Positions 7,019 to 61,008 of a stretch of DNA of 64,000 nucleotides are shown here, piece after piece (the stretch's first letter is position 1; every line of letters starts with the position of its first letter). Origin of the DNA: a bacterium (GTDB taxonomy: Bacteria; Patescibacteriota; Minisyncoccia; Phycocordibacterales; UBA12079); contig JAGYLJ010000001.1 in NCBI GenBank assembly GCA_018401295.1, positions 27,901 to 91,900 of the forward strand. The letters run 5' to 3'. The notes beneath the pieces were generated by a model, which saw only the letters and a program-made list of their open reading frames with translations, had not been told where the DNA came from and made no database searches. Made by a program: the position numbers and the translations under genes.

Positions 7019-7755
7019 TAATTTTTGATTTAGATGGCACTCTTGCTAAGAGCAAGTGTGATATTGATAATGAGATGGCTAATCTTTTGGGTAGTTTATT
7101 AAAGATTAAAAAGGTAGCAATTATTTCTGGGGGAACCTATACTCAAATAGAAGAATCCCTTTTATCAAAACTTGATTGCGATAGTTTTCTTTTTTACAAT
7201 CTTTTTATTTTTCCGACCTGTGCCACTAGTTTTTATAAATATGTAATAGGGGAGTGGGAAAATGTTTATACAGAAGAGATAGAACCGGAGCAAAGAGAGA
7301 ATATTATAAAAGCTTTAAATGAATCCCTTGAGGAAGCTGGTTATCATAAACCTAAGATTGTTCGTGGTGAAATAATTGAAGATAGGTTGACTCAGATAAC
7401 TTTTTCTGGTTTAGGACAGGAGGCCCCTCTTGGAGAAAAAATAAGGTGGGATCCTGATCATGTCTTAAGGGATAAAATAATTAAAGCTTTTGAAAAACGC
7501 ATATCTGATTTTGACGCTAAGATTGGAGGTTCTACTTCCATTGATGTGAACAAAAAAGGGGTTGATAAAGCCTATGGTATTAGGCAGATTGAAAAAAATC
7601 TTAAGATCCCTGTTGAAAAAATGTTGTTTATCGGAGATGCACTTTTTGTTGGAGGAAACGATTTCCCAGTTATTACTACGGATATAGATATAATTTTTGT
7701 AGATAATCCAGAAGAGACGAAAAAACATATAAGAGAGATTATAAAAAATCCGTAA
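7015..7755 (+). CDS. HAD-IIB family hydrolase (phosphomannomutase/sugar-phosphatase-like)
   Basis: 'MIIFDLDGTL' DxDGT nucleophile motif and C-terminal 'GDALFVGGND'. ATG at 7015 overlaps the upstream stop (ATGA). Confidence 0.65.
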   Translation: MIIFDLDGTLAKSKCDIDNEMANLLGSLLKIKKVAIISGGTYTQIEESLLSKLDCDSFLFYNLFIFPTCATSFYKYVIGEWENVYTEEIEPEQRENIIKALNESLEEAGYHKPKIVRGEIIEDRLTQITFSGLGQEAPLGEKIRWDPDHVLRDKIIKAFEKRISDFDAKIGGSTSIDVNKKGVDKAYGIRQIEKNLKIPVEKMLFIGDALFVGGNDFPVITTDIDIIFVDNPEETKKHIREIIKNP

Positions 7756-31206: not shown

Positions 31207-32259
31207 TTATTTTATTAATTTAACTAAATCATCTTCTTTTTCATAGACTCGGAAGCGACCAGAAAGAATGCCGAGTCTATAATTTATACCTTCACTCATT
31301 AACCCCCAATTAGTTTCTTTTAGTTTCTCTTTTAATAATTTTTTAAGGTTAGCGGAGCTTTCATATTCATTTTCTGTTTTTGAATCTTCGAGAGTAAAAG
31401 ATAAAGAAACTATTCTATCCATATCTGGTTTATCAAATATAAGATTTGAGTAATGAGTATCTTTTAAAATACTTACAATAAATTCTTTAAATTGGGGAAT
31501 TGTAAGTTTCTTTAATTTACCAACCTTATCATATAGATCTTTATTCTTCTCTTTTTCTTTGTGTTTATCAATTATTTCAGATAGACCTTCCATTCTTCTC
31601 TTAAAATCTAAATATTTATATCCTTTTTCTTCACTTAAGCAAAAACGAGCTTTATCTTTTTCAAAGTTGGGATCGGGTTTTTCTTTTTTAGTTCTCAGAT
31701 CAAATTTATCTATAAATGAATGATCACACTTAGTACAAATATATTTTGTTATGGCAATTTTATTCTTAACCTTTTCTGGTTCACGTGTCATTTCAGAATT
31801 ACATTTTTCACAAAGAGTTGGTGTTGATTTCCAAACCTCACCATTATCAAAAACTCCTTTATTATGCAAACATTTATTTGGACAAACAAAAAAGAAAAGA
31901 ACTCTGTCGTCTTTGTCTCCCCAAAGATGTTTACTTTCAGACTCCATTAAGGAATTACAAGTGCCACATCTTATTAACTCTGGGGGAGGAGTTTCTTCTA
32001 ATAATCTGTCTCTTTCTTCATCTCTTTGCATCCATTTATTTATAACTTCTTCTTTCTTTAAATATTTTTCTCCTGTTATGAAATGTAATTGAAATTCAAA
32101 AAGAGACGCTAACTGTCTTTTTGAAAGGTTTTTACCTTTGTGTTTGGGAGGTTTGTGTTTTGGATCAAACCAAAGTTTTTCCATATCACGACAATAACTA
32201 ATAGTTGTTTTATCATATAAATCAGAATATTCTTGTTTTGGTTTGAGATATTTAATCAT
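31207..32259 (-). CDS. Double zinc-ribbon protein, unknown function (last gene of the TIR operon)
   Basis: 'CGTCNS...CPNKC' and 'CEKCNS...CTKCDH'. Its start overlaps the stop of the upstream gene by 4 nt. Confidence 0.5.
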   Translation of the reverse strand: MIKYLKPKQEYSDLYDKTTISYCRDMEKLWFDPKHKPPKHKGKNLSKRQLASLFEFQLHFITGEKYLKKEEVINKWMQRDEERDRLLEETPPPELIRCGTCNSLMESESKHLWGDKDDRVLFFFVCPNKCLHNKGVFDNGEVWKSTPTLCEKCNSEMTREPEKVKNKIAITKYICTKCDHSFIDKFDLRTKKEKPDPNFEKDKARFCLSEEKGYKYLDFKRRMEGLSEIIDKHKEKEKNKDLYDKVGKLKKLTIPQFKEFIVSILKDTHYSNLIFDKPDMDRIVSLSFTLEDSKTENEYESSANLKKLLKEKLKETNWGLMSEGINYRLGILSGRFRVYEKEDDLVKLIK

Positions 32260-39139: not shown

Positions 39140-40894
39140 TTAATTAATAATTTCTTTTAGTTTTCTAACCAAGAGATTTTTCCTTTCAGAGATAAATTCT
39201 TCAAAATTATTGAATTCCAATATATTAGGAATCAGATGATTTTCGCAGAATTTTTCAATACTGATATTTTGTTTTTCACTTTCTTGTTTTGCCCAATCTT
39301 TAAGATTCGTCTGTTGTTTAGATTCATTTTCATTTGCATCCAAAAGTTGGAGATTAAGTATGCTATTGTTATTTTCTTTATCTAAATAAAATTCAAATTT
39401 ATCTTCGGGAATATTGTTATTGTCCAAATCAAGTTTTTTGAATGTTGAAATGGGATGTAAGTGGTCTTTATGGAAATCTCCATTTTTATAATCAAGATCA
39501 GGATAAAGTAATGATAGGATAGAAAATGACAGGTCAGTATCTTTTTGGATTTTTAATAGATTATTGATGTACTCATCATCAATGGTCATGTTTTTTGTGG
39601 TTCCTTTTAATTTTTCTTGGATTTTTTTAATCGGAAATAAATTGAGGTTTTCCTCAATAGGGTATTTGTTAATGTTATTAGTGAAAACACTTCTGATTAG
39701 TGACAATATTTGGTCTGCTTGTCCTCCAAATATTCTTTTTACTAGAGCAACATTTAACCATCTCTTGATAATTGTTCTATCTTCGGTAAATTCTACTTTT
39801 GACGTAAAGCCATCAGTAATATTTCTGTGGTATAAGTAATATATTATCGGCATTAAAGCATTTTTAGAAGTAAGATTTGAATCAACAAAACCGAAATCTC
39901 TAATTAGATCAAAAGTTTTATGTATTGCTTGGCTTATTTTATTCCACTCTTTCTCAAAATTTATTGCATTTTCCTTGCTAAAATTAGTTACCCTAAATTT
40001 GATATCTTTACTGTGCAATAAAAGAAAAGTTTTTAATATAAAATCTTTTTTTATGAAATAACCTTTATCTCTAATTTCATCAACTAGTTTATGGATCTCT
40101 TTTCTTGCATCTTTTTCCTCCCAATTTGCGACTGCTATCGACATCACAAGATCTGAAAAATTAAGTGGTTCTCCTCCGCTGTTAATTCTTATAAAAATAT
40201 TTGATGCTTTATCTATATCTTGTTCTTTTTCTAAAAAATAATTGATTATGGAATCAGAGTGAATTGTTTTTTGTAATTTAGAGAGCGTTTCGTAAGTAAA
40301 TTTATTGTTTTTATATTGATGTTCATCTAGAAACTCATTGAAACTTAGAATATCTCTAAATTTTAAAATTTGGTTAATCTTAAACCATTTGAGGGGATCG
40401 TCAGTATATTCATCTAATGTTAGAAATTTAAATTCATAGATTCTGCCATCCTCCTCATCTTCTAAGGGACTTTGAATATTTAAATAAAGATGGCGTGTGG
40501 GAAGAGCATGTTCTGTATCTTCTCTTCGAAATCTTGGTTTTTTGTAGGCATAACTACCTTTTAAACCTATATACAATGAAGTTAAACGCTGTTGTCCATC
40601 TAAAATAGCAGTAAAGTCAGGTAACCCCACTGTGTTAATTTCTTCGTTATGTGTTCTAAATCCTTCTCTGTATTCTTTTAAAAATTTATAAAATTTATAT
40701 GAATTTGTAGTATTTCCCTCAACCATCCAAAACAAAAAAGAGCTTATTGGGTAGTTTCTCATTATGGAATCAAAAAGCCACTCAATTTTACTGTGTTCCC
40801 ATTCAAACTCTCTTTGAATTGCAGGGAGTAAATATTTATTATTTTCTATATTTTTTATTGCCTCAAAAATTGTGATTGGTGTTTGAAATGACAT
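39140..40894 (-). CDS. DUF262/DUF1524 protein (GmrSD-like type IV restriction enzyme)
   Basis: N-terminal 'LLPAIQREFEWEHSKIEWLFDSI..YPISSFLFW' and 'ILDGQQRLTSL' (DUF262). C-terminal His-Me strip 'HKDHLHP.....N..LLDANENESK' (DUF1524). Confidence 0.8.
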   Translation of the reverse strand: MSFQTPITIFEAIKNIENNKYLLPAIQREFEWEHSKIEWLFDSIMRNYPISSFLFWMVEGNTTNSYKFYKFLKEYREGFRTHNEEINTVGLPDFTAILDGQQRLTSLYIGLKGSYAYKKPRFRREDTEHALPTRHLYLNIQSPLEDEEDGRIYEFKFLTLDEYTDDPLKWFKINQILKFRDILSFNEFLDEHQYKNNKFTYETLSKLQKTIHSDSIINYFLEKEQDIDKASNIFIRINSGGEPLNFSDLVMSIAVANWEEKDARKEIHKLVDEIRDKGYFIKKDFILKTFLLLHSKDIKFRVTNFSKENAINFEKEWNKISQAIHKTFDLIRDFGFVDSNLTSKNALMPIIYYLYHRNITDGFTSKVEFTEDRTIIKRWLNVALVKRIFGGQADQILSLIRSVFTNNINKYPIEENLNLFPIKKIQEKLKGTTKNMTIDDEYINNLLKIQKDTDLSFSILSLLYPDLDYKNGDFHKDHLHPISTFKKLDLDNNNIPEDKFEFYLDKENNNSILNLQLLDANENESKQQTNLKDWAKQESEKQNISIEKFCENHLIPNILEFNNFEEFISERKNLLVRKLKEIIN

Positions 40895-40993
40895 AATGAT
40901 ATTTTCATAGATTAAAGATTAAACACCCAAACTAAAAAAGGTCGAAATAATGACCTTAGATTTTGACAGGAATAAATTTTTTTCTCCATAATA

Positions 40994-41375
40994 TTCTAGC
41001 GGGTTTTAAAATGGAAGAAGTCTTTTGAATACCAAAAGGCTTCCCGCCATTGCGATGAACCGAAGCTCACCCATACAGATTTCTCCATATGACCCGCTAG
41101 AGTGACTTTGGACGAGAAGCCTTTTAGACTCTAGCGGGATTTTCACCATACCTTTTGAAATTCAAAAGGGTTAGGCTACTTATATTTAATTGTTAATGAA
41201 TATAATATCAAATATTCTGATATTATTCTATACCCTAACTTAAAGGAGGGAATTTGTGAAGCGATAGTTACCTACTTCTTACCAACTTATATAAATGCTG
41301 GACTTTAAAATTCATTGCGTCATTAATAGAGTTATGGAAAATGTTGCAATAAACCCGCTAGAAGTGACTTTGATT
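40994..41375. repeat. Nested inverted/direct repeats built on CTAGCGGG, running into the recombinase 5' end
   Basis: ttctagcgggttt 40994-41006 versus aaacccgctagaa 41351-41363. cccgctagagt 41093-41103 versus actctagcggg 41128-41138. acccgctagagtgactttg versus acccgctagaagtgactttg. Confidence 0.8.
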
Positions 41376-42674
41376 AGAGATACTATACAATCTCCAAAGT
41401 ACTGTTTATACGCCCGTAAATCAACAGAACAGGACGAATTACAAGCTCTTTCGATTGATTCTCAAATCAAAGAGATGACAGATATGGCGGTGAAAGAAGA
41501 GCTTGATATTGTTGAGATTAGAAAAGAAAGTCACTCAGCTAAAGATTCAGGGAGCAGACCTGTTTTTAATCAATTAATTGAAGATATAAAATTAGGAAAA
41601 TTTACGGGGATAATTTGTTGGGCACCTGATAGGTTGAGCAGAAATGCTGGAGATTTAGGACGGGTGGTAGATTTAATGGATCAAGGATTTTTGGTAGATA
41701 TCAGAACTCACGGACAAAGATTTACTAATAATCCAAATGAAAAGTTTTTGTTAATGATTTTAGGAAGTCAGGCAAAACTTGAAAATGATCATAAAGGAGA
41801 AAATGTAAAGAGAGGATTGAGAGCAAAATGTGAGCAAGGTTGGCGACCAGGAGTTTCTCCTGTTGGGTATATTCATGATAAGTATTTAGATAAAGGACAA
41901 AAGAAAGTATTTATTGATGAAGAAAAAGCCCCTGTCATTAAAGAAATGTTCGAAAAAGTGGCTTACGAAAAATATAGTGGGAGAGATGTTTATGTTTGGT
42001 TAGTAAAAGAAAAAGATTTCAGAACTAAAAATGATAAGAGATTAGCTTTGAGTAGAATTTATAAGATTTTCAGTGACACATATTATTATGGTGAGTTTGA
42101 ATATCCTGTGGGAAGTGAAAATTGGTATCAAGGTAAACATGATCCAATCATAACAAAAGAGTTATTTTTGAAAGCCAAAGCAAATTTACAAACTCCACCT
42201 AAACGATACCCTGGAACTAAAGAATTTGATTTTACTCAATTAATGTTTTGTGGAAATTGTGGTTCAGGAATATCTGCGGAAGAAAAATTTAAACATCAGA
42301 AGAATGGAAATACTCATCGTTATGTTTACTATCATTGTTCAAGAGGTAAAGATAGATTTTGTAAAGAGAAAGCTATAAGAGAGGAAGAACTCATTAAACA
42401 ATTAATTCAAATGATAGATAAAATAGATATTGATGAAATTAGTGCTCAAGGCAAAATTAAAAAAGAAGTTATGAGATTTAGAAAATTCAGTTATGGAGTA
42501 TTTGGACAAGAAACAGAATTTGATAAAAGACCAATCGAAGCAGATATTCGAAACTATGCAAAGTATATTCTTACAGATGGCACAAAAGACGATAAAAGAG
42601 AGTTGCTGGGGTGTTTAAGAAGTAGGTTGGAAATAAGAGAGAAGAGAGTGCTTTTGTCCCCAAACAATCAATAA
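41334..42674 (+). CDS. Large serine recombinase (resolvase catalytic domain + recombinase domain + zinc ribbon)
   Basis: 'YCLYARKSTEQDELQALSIDSQ' (catalytic Ser), 'WAPDRLSRN', 'KGENVKRGL' and Zn ribbon 'CGNCGS...YYHCS'. ATG at 41334 preferred to 41295. Confidence 0.85.
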   Translation: MENVAINPLEVTLIRDTIQSPKYCLYARKSTEQDELQALSIDSQIKEMTDMAVKEELDIVEIRKESHSAKDSGSRPVFNQLIEDIKLGKFTGIICWAPDRLSRNAGDLGRVVDLMDQGFLVDIRTHGQRFTNNPNEKFLLMILGSQAKLENDHKGENVKRGLRAKCEQGWRPGVSPVGYIHDKYLDKGQKKVFIDEEKAPVIKEMFEKVAYEKYSGRDVYVWLVKEKDFRTKNDKRLALSRIYKIFSDTYYYGEFEYPVGSENWYQGKHDPIITKELFLKAKANLQTPPKRYPGTKEFDFTQLMFCGNCGSGISAEEKFKHQKNGNTHRYVYYHCSRGKDRFCKEKAIREEELIKQLIQMIDKIDIDEISAQGKIKKEVMRFRKFSYGVFGQETEFDKRPIEADIRNYAKYILTDGTKDDKRELLGCLRSRLEIREKRVLLSPNNQ

Positions 42675-56560: not shown

Positions 56561-56584
56561 TTGTCTGCTCCGGCGGCAGGGCTC
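56561..56584. repeat. att-type direct repeat at tRNA-Asn (last 17 nt of the tRNA + 7 nt of flank)
   Basis: Identical to 29997..30020. Confidence 0.85.
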
Positions 56585-56640
56585 GAACCTGCGACAAAGC
56601 GATTAACAGTCGCTTGCTCTACCAACTGAGCTACGCCGGA
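56568..56640 (-). tRNA. tRNA-Asn (anticodon GTT)
   Basis: Manual cloverleaf: acceptor TCCGGCG/CGCCGGA, D arm GCTC-AGTTGGTA-GAGC, anticodon arm AGCGA-CTGTTAA-TCGCT, variable TTGTC, T arm GCAGG-TTCGAGC-CCTGC, discriminator G. CCA is not encoded. Confidence 0.95.
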
Positions 56641-59958: not shown

Positions 59959-61008
59959 TTATATTCCTAATTTTTTTCTATCTCGGGCCATCATTTTATT
60001 GTATGTTTCTAGCGGGTCGGCACCTTCATAGATTATTTGATAAATGAAATCGATAGAAGGAGCATCAATACTATTTTCCCTGGCAATTTCATGGGCAGCC
60101 TTAACTGAATAGTAACCTTCAACAGTTTTATGTTCTTTTTTCATTTCTTCTATTAGTTCTAGCGGGGTTTTTCCGTCAGTGCAAATCCTTTTTCCAAACT
60201 CTTTGTTTCTTGTATCTCCAAAACAAGAAAGCATTATATCACCCCAAAAAGAAGCTGATCCTGGAAGGAAAGTCGTGTCAGAAGCTCCCATCTTTTTAGC
60301 AATTTTATAAACATCAAAAGCAGCTCTAGTAATAAAAGATGATTTAGTACCTATAGAAAAACCTAACCCTTCACAAATTCCGGCCCCGATTGAAATAAAG
60401 TTTTTCAAAGCACCTGCAATTTCAACTGATAGAACGTCATTATTGGTATAAATGCGAAGAGTATCACTGTGGAATAAATCAGCAGCTAATTCAGTACAGA
60501 CATTATTTTGACAAGCTATTTCTGCGATTAAGGGTACATTATTAGCGATATCTTTGGCTATTGTTCCTCCGGAGAAGACTGCAATAGGATTGTTGAATTT
60601 GGTATCTTTAGTATTTTTATGAACAATAGTACTGAGAAGTTCATGAGTTTTGTTATCGATTCCTTTAGAAATAATTATAAAAGTCGTGTCTCTGTTTATC
60701 ATAGGACCAATGTCTTTTAGTGCCTCGTTTATATTCTGGGCGTTAATTCCAATGATAACAATATCTGAATCTTTAATTAAATCTTCTTTATTCTTTAAAC
60801 CTTGAATTTTGTCATTAAAAGCCATTTCTTGAAAATGATAGGGGTGTTTTTTGTCGGTAGTAAAATTATTATAAACATTTTCGTCAATGTCCCAAAAAAA
60901 GAAATTGTAATTATCGTCTTTAGCAAATTTTTTCGTAAGGTAATGGGCGATGGCACAATTGAATGCTCCGAACCCTAAGAAAGATATTTTTTTTACTTGT
61001 TTATCCAT
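59959..61008 (-). CDS. gpsA: NAD(P)H-dependent glycerol-3-phosphate dehydrogenase
   Basis: N-terminal Rossmann 'ISFLGFGAFNCAIA', 'VEIAGALKNFISIGAGICEGLG', 'GDIMLSCFGDTRNKEFG' and 'TVEGYYS'. Confidence 0.75.
   Translation of the reverse strand: MDKQVKKISFLGFGAFNCAIAHYLTKKFAKDDNYNFFFWDIDENVYNNFTTDKKHPYHFQEMAFNDKIQGLKNKEDLIKDSDIVIIGINAQNINEALKDIGPMINRDTTFIIISKGIDNKTHELLSTIVHKNTKDTKFNNPIAVFSGGTIAKDIANNVPLIAEIACQNNVCTELAADLFHSDTLRIYTNNDVLSVEIAGALKNFISIGAGICEGLGFSIGTKSSFITRAAFDVYKIAKKMGASDTTFLPGSASFWGDIMLSCFGDTRNKEFGKRICTDGKTPLELIEEMKKEHKTVEGYYSVKAAHEIARENSIDAPSIDFIYQIIYEGADPLETYNKMMARDRKKLGI

Follow-up and report, generated by a model that had tools for sequence, protein, structure and literature searches.

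A LOOT RNA leader beside a large serine recombinase gene in a patescibacterium, with a possible swap of pairing partners at the downstream start site

The locus described here has analogues, of varying closeness, in several known systems. Translational riboswitch platforms, and leaders that sequester the ribosome-binding site, comprise the same three parts that we recognise below, a strand that buries the start site, a strand that restrains the burying strand, and the start site itself; their exclusive folds are nearly equal in energy and the element lies directly upstream of an open reading frame (ORF). In plasmid mRNAs of the hok/sok type, long-range alternative pairings decide whether the start site opens, and an antisense RNA encoded nearby can pair there. 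Integrons have a recombinase gene divergent from a conserved promoter and leader, behind which highly variable cargo genes follow, and the IS110 bridge RNA, also structured, is encoded next to a recombinase gene and has a variable segment matching DNA close by. The most direct precedent is the LOOT RNA motif itself (Rfam RF03000; Weinberg et al. 2017, PMC5737381), which has been described as metagenome-derived (PMC7779021) and for which many 'cross-covariations' have been reported (PMC7657543). Rfam types the family as 'Gene; sRNA'. LOOT is a well-supported bacterial RNA motif, and a search of the accessible literature turned up no account of what it does.

We analysed a window of 64,000 nucleotides from a bacterium of the Patescibacteriota, and in particular the spacer between a GmrSD-like gene on the minus strand (39140..40894; Pfam GmrSD_N, E 1e-31) and a large serine recombinase gene on the plus strand (41334..42674; Pfam Resolvase, Recombinase and Zn_ribbon_recom; start assigned from homologues). 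An earlier note on this DNA had pointed to a spacer relatively rich in GC, which it is (0.405, against about 0.25-0.31 in the flanks), and among several explanations had offered a structured RNA on the minus strand that would also be the leader of the GmrSD-like gene. This was essentially right. At its core the spacer encodes a full-length LOOT RNA on the minus strand, divergent from the recombinase gene; the Infernal comparison with Rfam that the note had recommended (cmscan) matched helices P1 to P5 at 41054..41177 to RF03000 with 76.8 bits against a gathering score of 46.4 (E 1e-12), over model positions 1-121 of 121, and in relatives the RNA is a 5' leader. The window therefore holds a new member of a known RNA family, and one that brings new functional clues.

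Chance is no explanation for the repeats of the spacer: the 64-kb window contains the word CCCGCTAGA six times where shuffles predict 0.08, and none of 100 shuffles reached six. Four of the six fall in the spacer and recombinase-start region under study, and these are both arms of LOOT helix P3 and two copies outside it. The first outside copy, AAAACCCGCUAGA (40995..41007, minus strand), is by sequence match a copy of the P3 5' arm with its linker; the second, AAACCCGCTAGAAGTGACTTTG (41351..41372, plus strand), occupies codons 6-13 of the recombinase and is complementary to the 3' strand of helix P3b together with the 3' arm of P3. Each of the repeats first noticed in the bare sequence is present: a perfect 13-nt inverted repeat (40994-41006/41351-41363), a perfect 11-bp stem with a 24-nt loop (41093-41103/41128-41138), which is P3, a direct repeat with one extra A (41092-41110 against 41353-41372), and the hairpin ccttttgaa/ttcaaaagg (41151..41169), which on the minus strand is LOOT helix P2 by the Rfam alignment and by its compensatory changes. 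A further hairpin, at 41017-41043, is also real, but its mismatch is a G.U only on the plus strand and becomes C.A on the minus strand, the strand of the RNA. The remaining two CCCGCTAGA words lie at about 60 kb inside gpsA, each as Pro-Leu-Glu codons, and are probably a coincidence.

For comparison we gathered about 145 LOOT loci. At least 119 loci were found with a LOOT-only DNA pattern, nearly all of them in Patescibacteria genomes assembled from metagenomes, which fits the published description of the motif as metagenome-derived; all 19 of the pattern-derived genome loci that were tested against Rfam proved to be LOOT, at 69-97 bits. Because a single sequence pattern produced this LOOT-anchored set, it represents one subfamily. 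Tandem arrays were searched for, and there was one full LOOT copy per locus. BLAST of the spacer against phage records gave no match, and a DNA pattern of the 5' domain gave 13 matches on viral contigs, two of them LOOT contigs already known and the other 11 below the LOOT threshold. A four-sequence MAFFT alignment misaligned P3 when used with RNAalifold, and structure and loci were taken instead from Rfam, nhmmer, a pattern of the 3' half and scripts.

The paired segments of this RNA covary among relatives, as the earlier note had proposed to check, both in P1-P4 and in a helix that the Rfam model does not contain. In an alignment of 59 sequences (A7), made with MAFFT, fitted to no structure and controlled by 500 shuffles, the pairs changed on both sides numbered 3 of 4 in P1, 6 of 7 in P2, 9 of 10 in P3 and 6 of 8 in P4, values matched by none of the shuffles; P5, which MAFFT misaligned, was left out of the scoring. 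The additional helix joins the strand of the P3 apical loop, AAAAGGCUUCUCGUCC (41110..41125, minus strand), to a conserved 3' tail, GGCGGGAAGCCUUUU (41034..41048, minus strand), with which it forms an inverted repeat and a pseudoknot; over 19 pairs, 91.9% of cells in the same alignment are paired and 11 pairs are changed on both sides, again matched by none of 500 shuffles. The loop strand overlaps a short helix, P3b (41117-41121 with 41104-41108, minus strand, from pair counts); a CUC strand is common to both helices, and P3b also covaries. The 5' arm of the hairpin at 41017..41043 (P6, minus strand; an inverted repeat and not a canonical terminator) is the tail itself, so that P6 and the loop:tail helix compete. 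We could establish no covariation for P6, nor did a test support the idea that the P3 loop recurs as a 10-nt copy in its 3' arm, which would have made the proposed swap fully symmetrical. The cross-covariations reported for LOOT may reflect the alternative pairings found here.

The strand of the RNA and the behaviour of P3 bear directly on a different reading, in which the CCCGCTAGA copies are DNA sites of the recombinase, either bounding a 344-bp segment, with both promoters and the recombinase start inside it, that can invert, or acting as att sites or their remnants. Inversion of 41007-41350 would create the junction aatattctagcgggtttattgcaac, and as read from the sequence it would bring the start-site copy immediately in front of an in-frame recombinase GTG. 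The perfect 13-bp inverted repeat does bracket the promoters, and a recombinase gene is adjacent here. Large serine recombinase genes are strongly linked to LOOT across the family, and of the LOOT loci found independently of any protein 66% have a recombinase gene within their 8 kb. In the one other locus that has the recombinase-internal copy (L187), moreover, the recombinase is broken directly after it. Yet the two arms of P3 (5' arm, RNA CCCGCUAGAGU, 41128..41138, behind an AAAAU linker; 3' arm, RNA ACUCUAGCGGG, 41093..41103; both on the minus strand) are hypervariable among loci while remaining perfectly complementary, with 57 different P3 10-mers, and G.U pairs are frequent on the LOOT strand (UG in 58 of 59 sequences at columns 83/160, UG in 31 and CG in 18 at columns 68/174). 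G.U pairs on one strand indicate that the minus strand is the RNA strand, and arms that vary freely while staying complementary are the signature of an RNA helix, not of a site for a protein. One and the same P3 word also occurs beside recombinases just 22% identical; P3 remains whole in chromosomal contexts (more than 100 chromosomal contigs carry an intact LOOT) and so is not an attP split by integration; and the outer arm within the recombinase gene is missing from nearly all relatives. The sole other assembly of the locus that we found (Logan SRR14300308), which breaks at 41151, has the same orientation. With the recombinase-internal arm in just one of about 140 other loci, the comparative data lend no support to att sites, or to the invertible switch, the crossover or binding sites and the att remnants that had been raised before, and we consider a role of the copies as recombination sites highly improbable. 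We also rejected an attP or attB role for P3, and the reading of the repeats as target-site duplications, in view of the hypervariable arms, the intact P3 and repeats that differ between loci with the same flanks.

The locus also differs from two recombinase systems that it resembles. The divergent arrangement of recombinase gene, conserved leader and variable cargo recalls an integron, but the enzyme here is a large serine recombinase where integrons have the tyrosine recombinase IntI, the cargo is not followed by attC-like repeats, and a locus usually has a single unit. With regard to the IS110 bridge RNA, the recombinase there is of the DEDD type and the variable segment lies in guide loops, whereas the variable segment of LOOT is a closed stem and its match lies on its own transcript, at a translation start, with no pair of target and donor; neither unpaired guide loops nor a recombinase of the IS110 type were found at LOOT.

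The position of the RNA is that of a leader. Across loci, a motif with the consensus ACAAYTNAATA (A.93, C.81, A.94, A.92, Y, T 1.0, N, A 1.0, A 1.0, T 1.0, A.87) stands 0-12 nt before P1, represented in the window by ACAATTAAATA (41183..41193, minus strand), and over 105 loci a T-A-T-A-A-T profile lies 5 nt upstream of it, corresponding here to a putative -10 box, TATATT (41199..41204, minus strand). The conservation of the motif, combined with the -10-like box, suggests that transcription starts near 41193-41190, and ACAATTAAATA is probably the 5' end of the transcript or a site overlapping its start. The TTGATA-N17-TAAATA promoter suggested earlier finds no support in family-wide conservation, which falls instead on this motif and its TATAAT-like box. 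Downstream, an ORF of at least 50 aa begins on the same strand within 130 nt of LOOT in 122 of 125 loci, against 33% of control positions, and only 17 of 137 loci (12%) have a terminator-like site between the two. LOOT in the relatives is thus the 5' leader of the next ORF on its strand. These cargo ORFs are mutually unrelated, and include membrane proteins, zinc-ribbon proteins, GmrSD-like proteins, methyltransferases and nucleases; the common function expected of a riboswitch regulon was not found among them.

In the window, where relatives have the start of a cargo gene, there is an ORF of just 25 codons, MEKKIYSCQNLRSLFRPFLVWVFNL (40912..40989, minus strand), which is either a leader peptide or a remnant. 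Its stop codon lies 17 nt before the ATG of the GmrSD-like gene at 40894, the first long same-strand ORF downstream of LOOT, and it contains the hairpin with a T-run on the minus strand (40930..40957) that the earlier note had also seen, the sole terminator-like site reported by our terminator scan. That the canonical ATG heads only 25 codons, with a terminator-like hairpin inside them and the GmrSD-like start 95 nt further on, speaks against a leader switch at this particular locus.

The observation that suggests how such a leader might work is the copy of the P3 5' arm just before the start codon. In the window it ends 5 nt (as a 13-mer) or 4 nt (as a 10-mer) before the ATG at 40989. A downstream copy matching at least 9 of 10 nt is found in 79 of 134 loci (59%), compared with 4 of 1417 non-cognate controls (0.3%), and in 69 of the 79 it ends 2-5 nt before an ATG. 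The copy changes with P3: one cargo gene is found downstream of three different P3 variants, and the copy matches P3 in every case. The 3' arm of P3 can pair with its own 5' arm, at a predicted -22.6 kcal/mol, or with the start-site copy, at -22.2 kcal/mol. For the 206-nt leader of the window, the 3' arm is paired with the copy in the fold of minimum energy (-68.4 kcal/mol, z = -4.8). When each fold was imposed in turn on 77 leaders, the median difference between them was 2.4 kcal/mol (range -4.8 to +8.8); these nested-fold energies leave the pseudoknot out. What one would look for in an expression platform, an alternative pairing at the translation start region that tracks P3 and is nearly equal in fold energy, is present.

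We propose, as a reading that is on balance probable, that the spacer encodes a minus-strand LOOT leader acting in cis, which swaps pairing partners to control the downstream start site. The unit would run, on the minus strand, from the promoter (about 41204-41183) through LOOT (41177-41054), the tail and hairpin (41053-41017) and the copy (41007-40995) to the start codon at 40989. In one state, the 3' arm of P3 would pair with the 5' arm to give the native LOOT fold, the 5' arm holding it off the downstream start site, which would be free. In the other, the 3' arm would pair with the copy just before the ATG and the start site would be buried. A second pair of mutually exclusive helices, P3b and the helix between P3 loop and 3' tail, would act on the same choice. 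LOOT would then be a translational switch in cis for the first downstream gene, its fold flipped by some putative signal, and we infer that translation is regulated by the swap. Here, the gene switched would be the 25-codon ORF; if it is translated, transcription or translation could continue into the GmrSD-like gene. In contrast to riboswitch-type leaders, the genes downstream of LOOT are functionally unrelated, and the sequestering helix is hypervariable and specific to each locus where such leaders use a conserved Shine-Dalgarno sequence. The start-site copy, and with it the platform, is absent in 41% of loci, and so the swap cannot be the entire function of the family.

The direct repeats formed by the P3 5' arm and its copy could also be seen as the boundaries of an inserted or exchangeable DNA module, reaching from the P3 loop to P6, with the internal 3' arm matching the repeats through the mode of insertion or copying. 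The segment is bounded by direct repeats of 10-13 nt; in one locus (L127) a second unit fuses promoter, P1, P2 and 5' arm straight to the ATG of a cargo gene, so that just one repeat separates P2 from the ATG in what would be an 'empty' version; and two loci (L230 and L123) share flanks and cargo while the segment between the repeats differs, repeats included. That last difference means that the repeats are not target-site duplications of host sequence, however, and the L127 arrangement, a natural deletion variant, is explained equally well by deletion between direct repeats. The copy as a rule lies 2-5 nt from the ATG, pointing to a role at the translation start, and P1 and P2, upstream of the supposed module, are always present across loci and covary as part of one RNA. 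A module of this kind is very unlikely to be the explanation.

A third partner for the 3' arm of P3 exists in this window, the copy within the recombinase mRNA, and it bears on the Rfam typing of the family. On this alternative, LOOT would be a free-standing sRNA acting in trans, with the 3' arm of P3 as a seed for mRNAs; its main target here would be codons 6-13 of the recombinase mRNA, and LOOT would either repress the recombinase or be triggered by it. The predicted duplex between the two, 19 bp with one bulge, has an energy of -33.3 kcal/mol and is stronger than that of the 3' arm with either its 5' arm or the start-site copy, all these values being from short segments (RNAduplex on whole transcripts gave meaningless long bulged duplexes). 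The copy is retained in L187 as a 33-nt island at the same distance from LOOT as in the window, and in the window a terminator-like site follows LOOT at 40957-40930. Against this, only two of about 140 loci have the recombinase-internal copy, and in L187 the body of the recombinase is gone; the commonest extra copy of P3 is in cis, at the downstream start site; and a same-strand ORF follows within 130 nt in 98% of loci, with a terminator-like site in 12% only. Rfam lists an sRNA gene, whereas the genomic context points to a leader acting in cis, and we regard the sRNA reading as unlikely. Under the proposed swap of partners in cis, the copy in the recombinase mRNA would be a lineage-specific addition, which may let the divergent transcripts pair. 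It might in this window play the part of the antisense partner in hok/sok; the LOOT locus shows no evidence of a toxin, of 3' processing or of a dedicated antisense RNA, and has no similarity to hok/sok in sequence or structure.

Taken further, and more tentatively, since we would put this at somewhat less than an even chance, LOOT RNAs may be partner-swap riboregulators nearly confined to bacteria of the candidate phyla radiation, where they would sit in recombinase-linked islands of cargo or defence genes. Each would have a private address of 10-12 nt in P3, duplicated at the start site of the cargo and, in this lineage, in the recombinase mRNA, coupling the expression of both, and the address and its copies would be exchanged, or change together, between near-identical loci.

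This study adds to a motif typed as an sRNA a host range in the Patescibacteria, a neighbourhood of large serine recombinases with variable and often defence-related cargo, and a fixed position as a 5' leader. The Rfam model, which ends at P5, contains neither the upstream start motif nor two structural features described here, the helix that joins the P3 loop to the 3' tail and the P3 arm repeated at the start site. For annotation of the window, the consequence is that the spacer should not be read as a recombination site. For the family, an 'unknown sRNA' becomes a hypothesis that mutations can test, a switch for the translation of cargo genes; if it is true, LOOT would be a natural, address-coded translational switch and would offer a handle on gene regulation in bacteria that are very hard to culture.

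The feature singled out in the spacer between the GmrSD-like gene (39140-40894, minus strand) and the large serine recombinase gene (41334-42674, plus strand) is real, and is a further member of an already known RNA family. In an Rfam scan of the window the sole match within the spacer was to LOOT RNA (RF03000), which occupies 41177-41054 of the minus strand, covers the full model and scores 76.8 bits (curated threshold, 46.4). All the repeats listed in the earlier note are present and do not arise by chance. The perfect 11-bp stem with its 24-nt loop (41093-41103/41128-41138) is helix P3 of LOOT, the local hairpin ccttttgaa/ttcaaaagg is helix P2, and the other local hairpin (41017-41043) lies on the same strand just 3' of the Rfam model; the 13-nt inverted repeat (40994-41006/41351-41363) is perfect and the direct repeat (41092-41110 and 41353-41372) differs by one extra A. 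The window holds six occurrences of the word CCCGCTAGA, where shuffles predict 0.08, and the spacer is GC-rich as described, at 40% compared with approximately 25-31% in its surroundings. LOOT was one of 224 candidate structured RNAs reported in 2017 (PMC5737381), was termed metagenome-based by the authors of Rfam (PMC7779021) and has been picked out as an extreme case with 28 'cross-covariations' (PMC7657543); no description of its function was found in the literature searched.

Relatives were gathered in three ways: from viral contigs and from metagenome contigs, both seeded with the recombinase protein, and with the LOOT DNA pattern alone. LOOT scored above the Rfam threshold in 3 of 20 viral contigs and was found with an nhmmer profile in 26 of 80 metagenome contigs. 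The third search used a pattern from the 3' half of LOOT, without protein reference, on a collection of species-representative genomes, and returned at least 119 loci, one of the 119 being a false positive; these LOOT-anchored loci are a sample of one subfamily, and all 19 that were re-tested with Rfam carried full-length LOOT (69-97 bits). Nearly all the matches listed come from metagenome-assembled genomes labelled in their records as Patescibacteria (the candidate phyla radiation), including Paceibacterota, Saccharibacteria, Nomurabacteria, Woesebacteria and others. The window is low in GC, and with relatives of this kind it probably comes from a Patescibacterium too. Among the same matches, a serine recombinase ORF lies inside the 8-kb stretch in 79 of 119 loci. 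At 49 loci it has the arrangement of the window, upstream of LOOT and divergent from it (within 600 nt at 27 of these); at 19 it is convergent and past the downstream gene, and at six it is followed directly by LOOT on the same strand. Two recombinase subfamilies take part, with a mutual identity of only 22%. The link between LOOT and recombinases is strong, but its geometry is variable. At one locus (L131) a SAM riboswitch (RF00162, 61 bits; 2886-2992) stands approximately 540 nt upstream of LOOT on the same strand.

The wider setting in the window looks like a defence or mobile island, dense from approximately 30000 to 56200 and adjoining a tRNA-Asn gene (56567-56640). To the left of LOOT are genes for an AbiJ-like protein, a ThsB-TIR protein, a LexA-like repressor and two N6/N4 methyltransferases, with small and large terminase-like genes. 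Past the recombinase gene come a type I restriction-modification system, in which a helix-turn-helix domain (MerR-type) is fused to HsdM, and then several nuclease genes; the island includes PD-(D/E)XK, HD and SNase nucleases, a YgjP peptidase and a PIN-like protein. A 350-aa ORF at 31207-32259 (minus strand) has a weak match to the recombinase zinc-ribbon domain (E 2e-4) and could represent a second large serine recombinase in degenerate form. In the 5' untranslated region of the recombinase gene, the segment 41243-41267 (plus strand), approximately 85 nt before the ATG, holds a strong Shine-Dalgarno-like AAGGAGG and, after it, a GTG that opens a mini-ORF of 3 codons (GTG AAG CGA TAG).

The position of LOOT among its relatives is that of a 5' leader, and the earlier suggestion of a structured RNA or leader was right. 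A same-strand ORF of at least 50 aa, the cargo, starts no more than 130 nt past the end of P5 in 122 of 125 loci, compared with 33% at control positions, most commonly at a distance of 50-75 nt, and a terminator-like site intervenes in only 17 of 137 loci. These downstream ORFs are mutually unrelated. On the other side, 0-12 nt upstream of P1 and outside the Rfam model, an ACAAYTNAATA motif is nearly invariant, and a TATAAT-like profile lies 5 nt upstream of it; the window has the motif at 41193-41183 and the putative -10 box at 41204-41199, both on the minus strand. The LOOT transcript therefore probably begins at or near the motif, which may be the RNA 5' end itself or an operator overlapping the transcription start.

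The sequence of P3 is hypervariable: the 134 unique loci carry 57 different 10-mers. Its 5' arm is nevertheless copied downstream, at no fewer than 9 of 10 nt, in 79 of the 134, compared with 4 of 1417 non-cognate pairings. This copy usually includes the preceding A-rich linker, and its end is 2-5 nt short of the ATG that opens the downstream ORF at 69 of these 79 loci. No such copy is present in 41% of the 134. In the window this start-site copy is at 41007-40995 (minus strand), followed by an ATG at 40989. Consequently, the P3 3' arm is complementary both to the 5' arm and to the downstream start region. One cargo gene (MYKRIPVSKLTG...) is found behind three different P3 words, with the matching copy each time. 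Locus L230 was compared with L123 and L120 over a stretch that opens 120 nt ahead of P3 and reaches the cargo gene. The left flank, P1-P2 and the initial 40 nt of the cargo gene are 93-97% identical, but identity is only 50-70% from the P3 5' arm to the start-site copy; the P3 words differ, and the three matching 10-mers seem to have been swapped or altered together. In L127, approximately 3.2 kb downstream of the full LOOT (plus strand of the locus, approximately 7090-7660), a second unit consists of promoter, ACAACTGAATA motif, P1, P2 and a P3 5' arm joined directly to the AATATG of a cargo gene (MKSVQPDQAGNL...) that stands behind a full LOOT in L003. This unit is a natural 'short leader' and looks as if it arose when the sequence between the two direct repeats was deleted.

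A second alternative pairing is between the conserved tail that follows P5 and the apical portion of the P3 hairpin, to which the tail is complementary. Covariation among relatives, which the earlier note had proposed to look for, is present in a MAFFT alignment of 59 diverse sequences made without fitting to structure. The loop:tail helix comprises 19 pairs, with 91.9% of cells paired and 11 pairs changed on both sides (for example, CG 31/AU 24/GC 4 at columns 80/162 and CG 40/GC 13 at columns 78/164); no shuffle out of 500 matched it, and shifted registers fell to 35-49% paired. P3b, which belongs to the Rfam model, also covaries (AU 27/GC 24 at columns 74/90) and uses the CUC strand of the loop:tail helix, so that the two are mutually exclusive. 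Frequent G.U pairs on the LOOT strand, which are A.C mismatches on the other, fix the minus strand of the window as the functional one. The window tail doubles as the 5' arm of the hairpin at 41043-41017, for which covariation was sought among the relatives and not shown. In the predicted minimum-energy fold of the 206-nt window leader (-68.4 kcal/mol, z = -4.8), P4, P5 and the tail hairpin lie inside a helix formed by the P3 3' arm and the start-site copy. When both folds were forced in turn on 77 leaders, with energies that leave the pseudoknot out, totals were approximately -65 to -75 kcal/mol and the gap had a median of 2.4 kcal/mol (range -4.8 to +8.8); start-region pairing was 0.68 in the alternative fold compared with 0.37 in the native fold.

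The copy inside the recombinase ORF (41351-41372) complements LOOT over 19 nt (the P3b 3' strand and P3 3' arm, with one bulge), and the predicted duplex, at -33.3 kcal/mol, is more stable than with either partner in cis. Among approximately 140 other loci it occurs only in L187, and so is not part of the design of the family. There, a 33-nt island, 88% identical to the window copy and equally distant from LOOT (222-235 nt upstream of the P3 5' arm), heads an ORF (METYNSARVTLMRG...) in which approximately 13 codons match the recombinase N-terminus before complete divergence; judged by its sequence, this ORF is a recombinase remnant keeping only the LOOT-complementary part. The copy may reflect antisense contact between two divergent transcripts in the window lineage, or a rearrangement scar. 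Two further exact CCCGCTAGA words (60008-60016 and 60158-60166, minus strand) lie inside gpsA (59959-61008), each as the codons CCG-CTA-GAA (Pro-Leu-Glu), as in the recombinase ORF. They are probably a coincidence, though statistically odd, and may otherwise be a candidate trans target of the LOOT 3' arm.

The spacer repeats had also been read as an invertible switch, as recombinase binding sites or as att remnants, and these DNA-level explanations are not supported: the stem bears the signature of an RNA helix, its arms are hypervariable beside unrelated recombinases, P3 is intact in chromosomes and the outer arm is missing in nearly all relatives. The only other assembly found of the window locus (L233, Logan SRR14300308) is identical and unchanged in orientation. 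Judged from assemblies, inversion in this one lineage is unlikely. That contig ends at window position 41151, exactly at the P2 palindrome inside LOOT, probably through an assembler break at the hairpin and not a rearrangement.

We propose a model in which LOOT would act in cis as a leader for the next ORF. In the native fold, with P3 closed, the start site of that ORF would be free, while in the alternative fold it would be buried by the P3 3' arm; competition between the loop:tail helix and P3b, and in the window the tail hairpin too, would weigh on the choice. At the canonical position the window has an ORF of only 25 codons (40989-40912, minus strand), which contains a terminator-like hairpin (40957-40930) and stops 17 nt before the start of the GmrSD-like gene; it could be a leader peptide through which the switch is coupled to expression of GmrSD, or what is left of an earlier cargo gene. 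To a motif for which no description of a function was found, the comparison adds a host range, a linkage to recombinases and a leader position. It further adds a pseudoknot or alternative helix that lies beyond the Rfam model and, at the downstream start site, a copy of the stem that co-varies with it.
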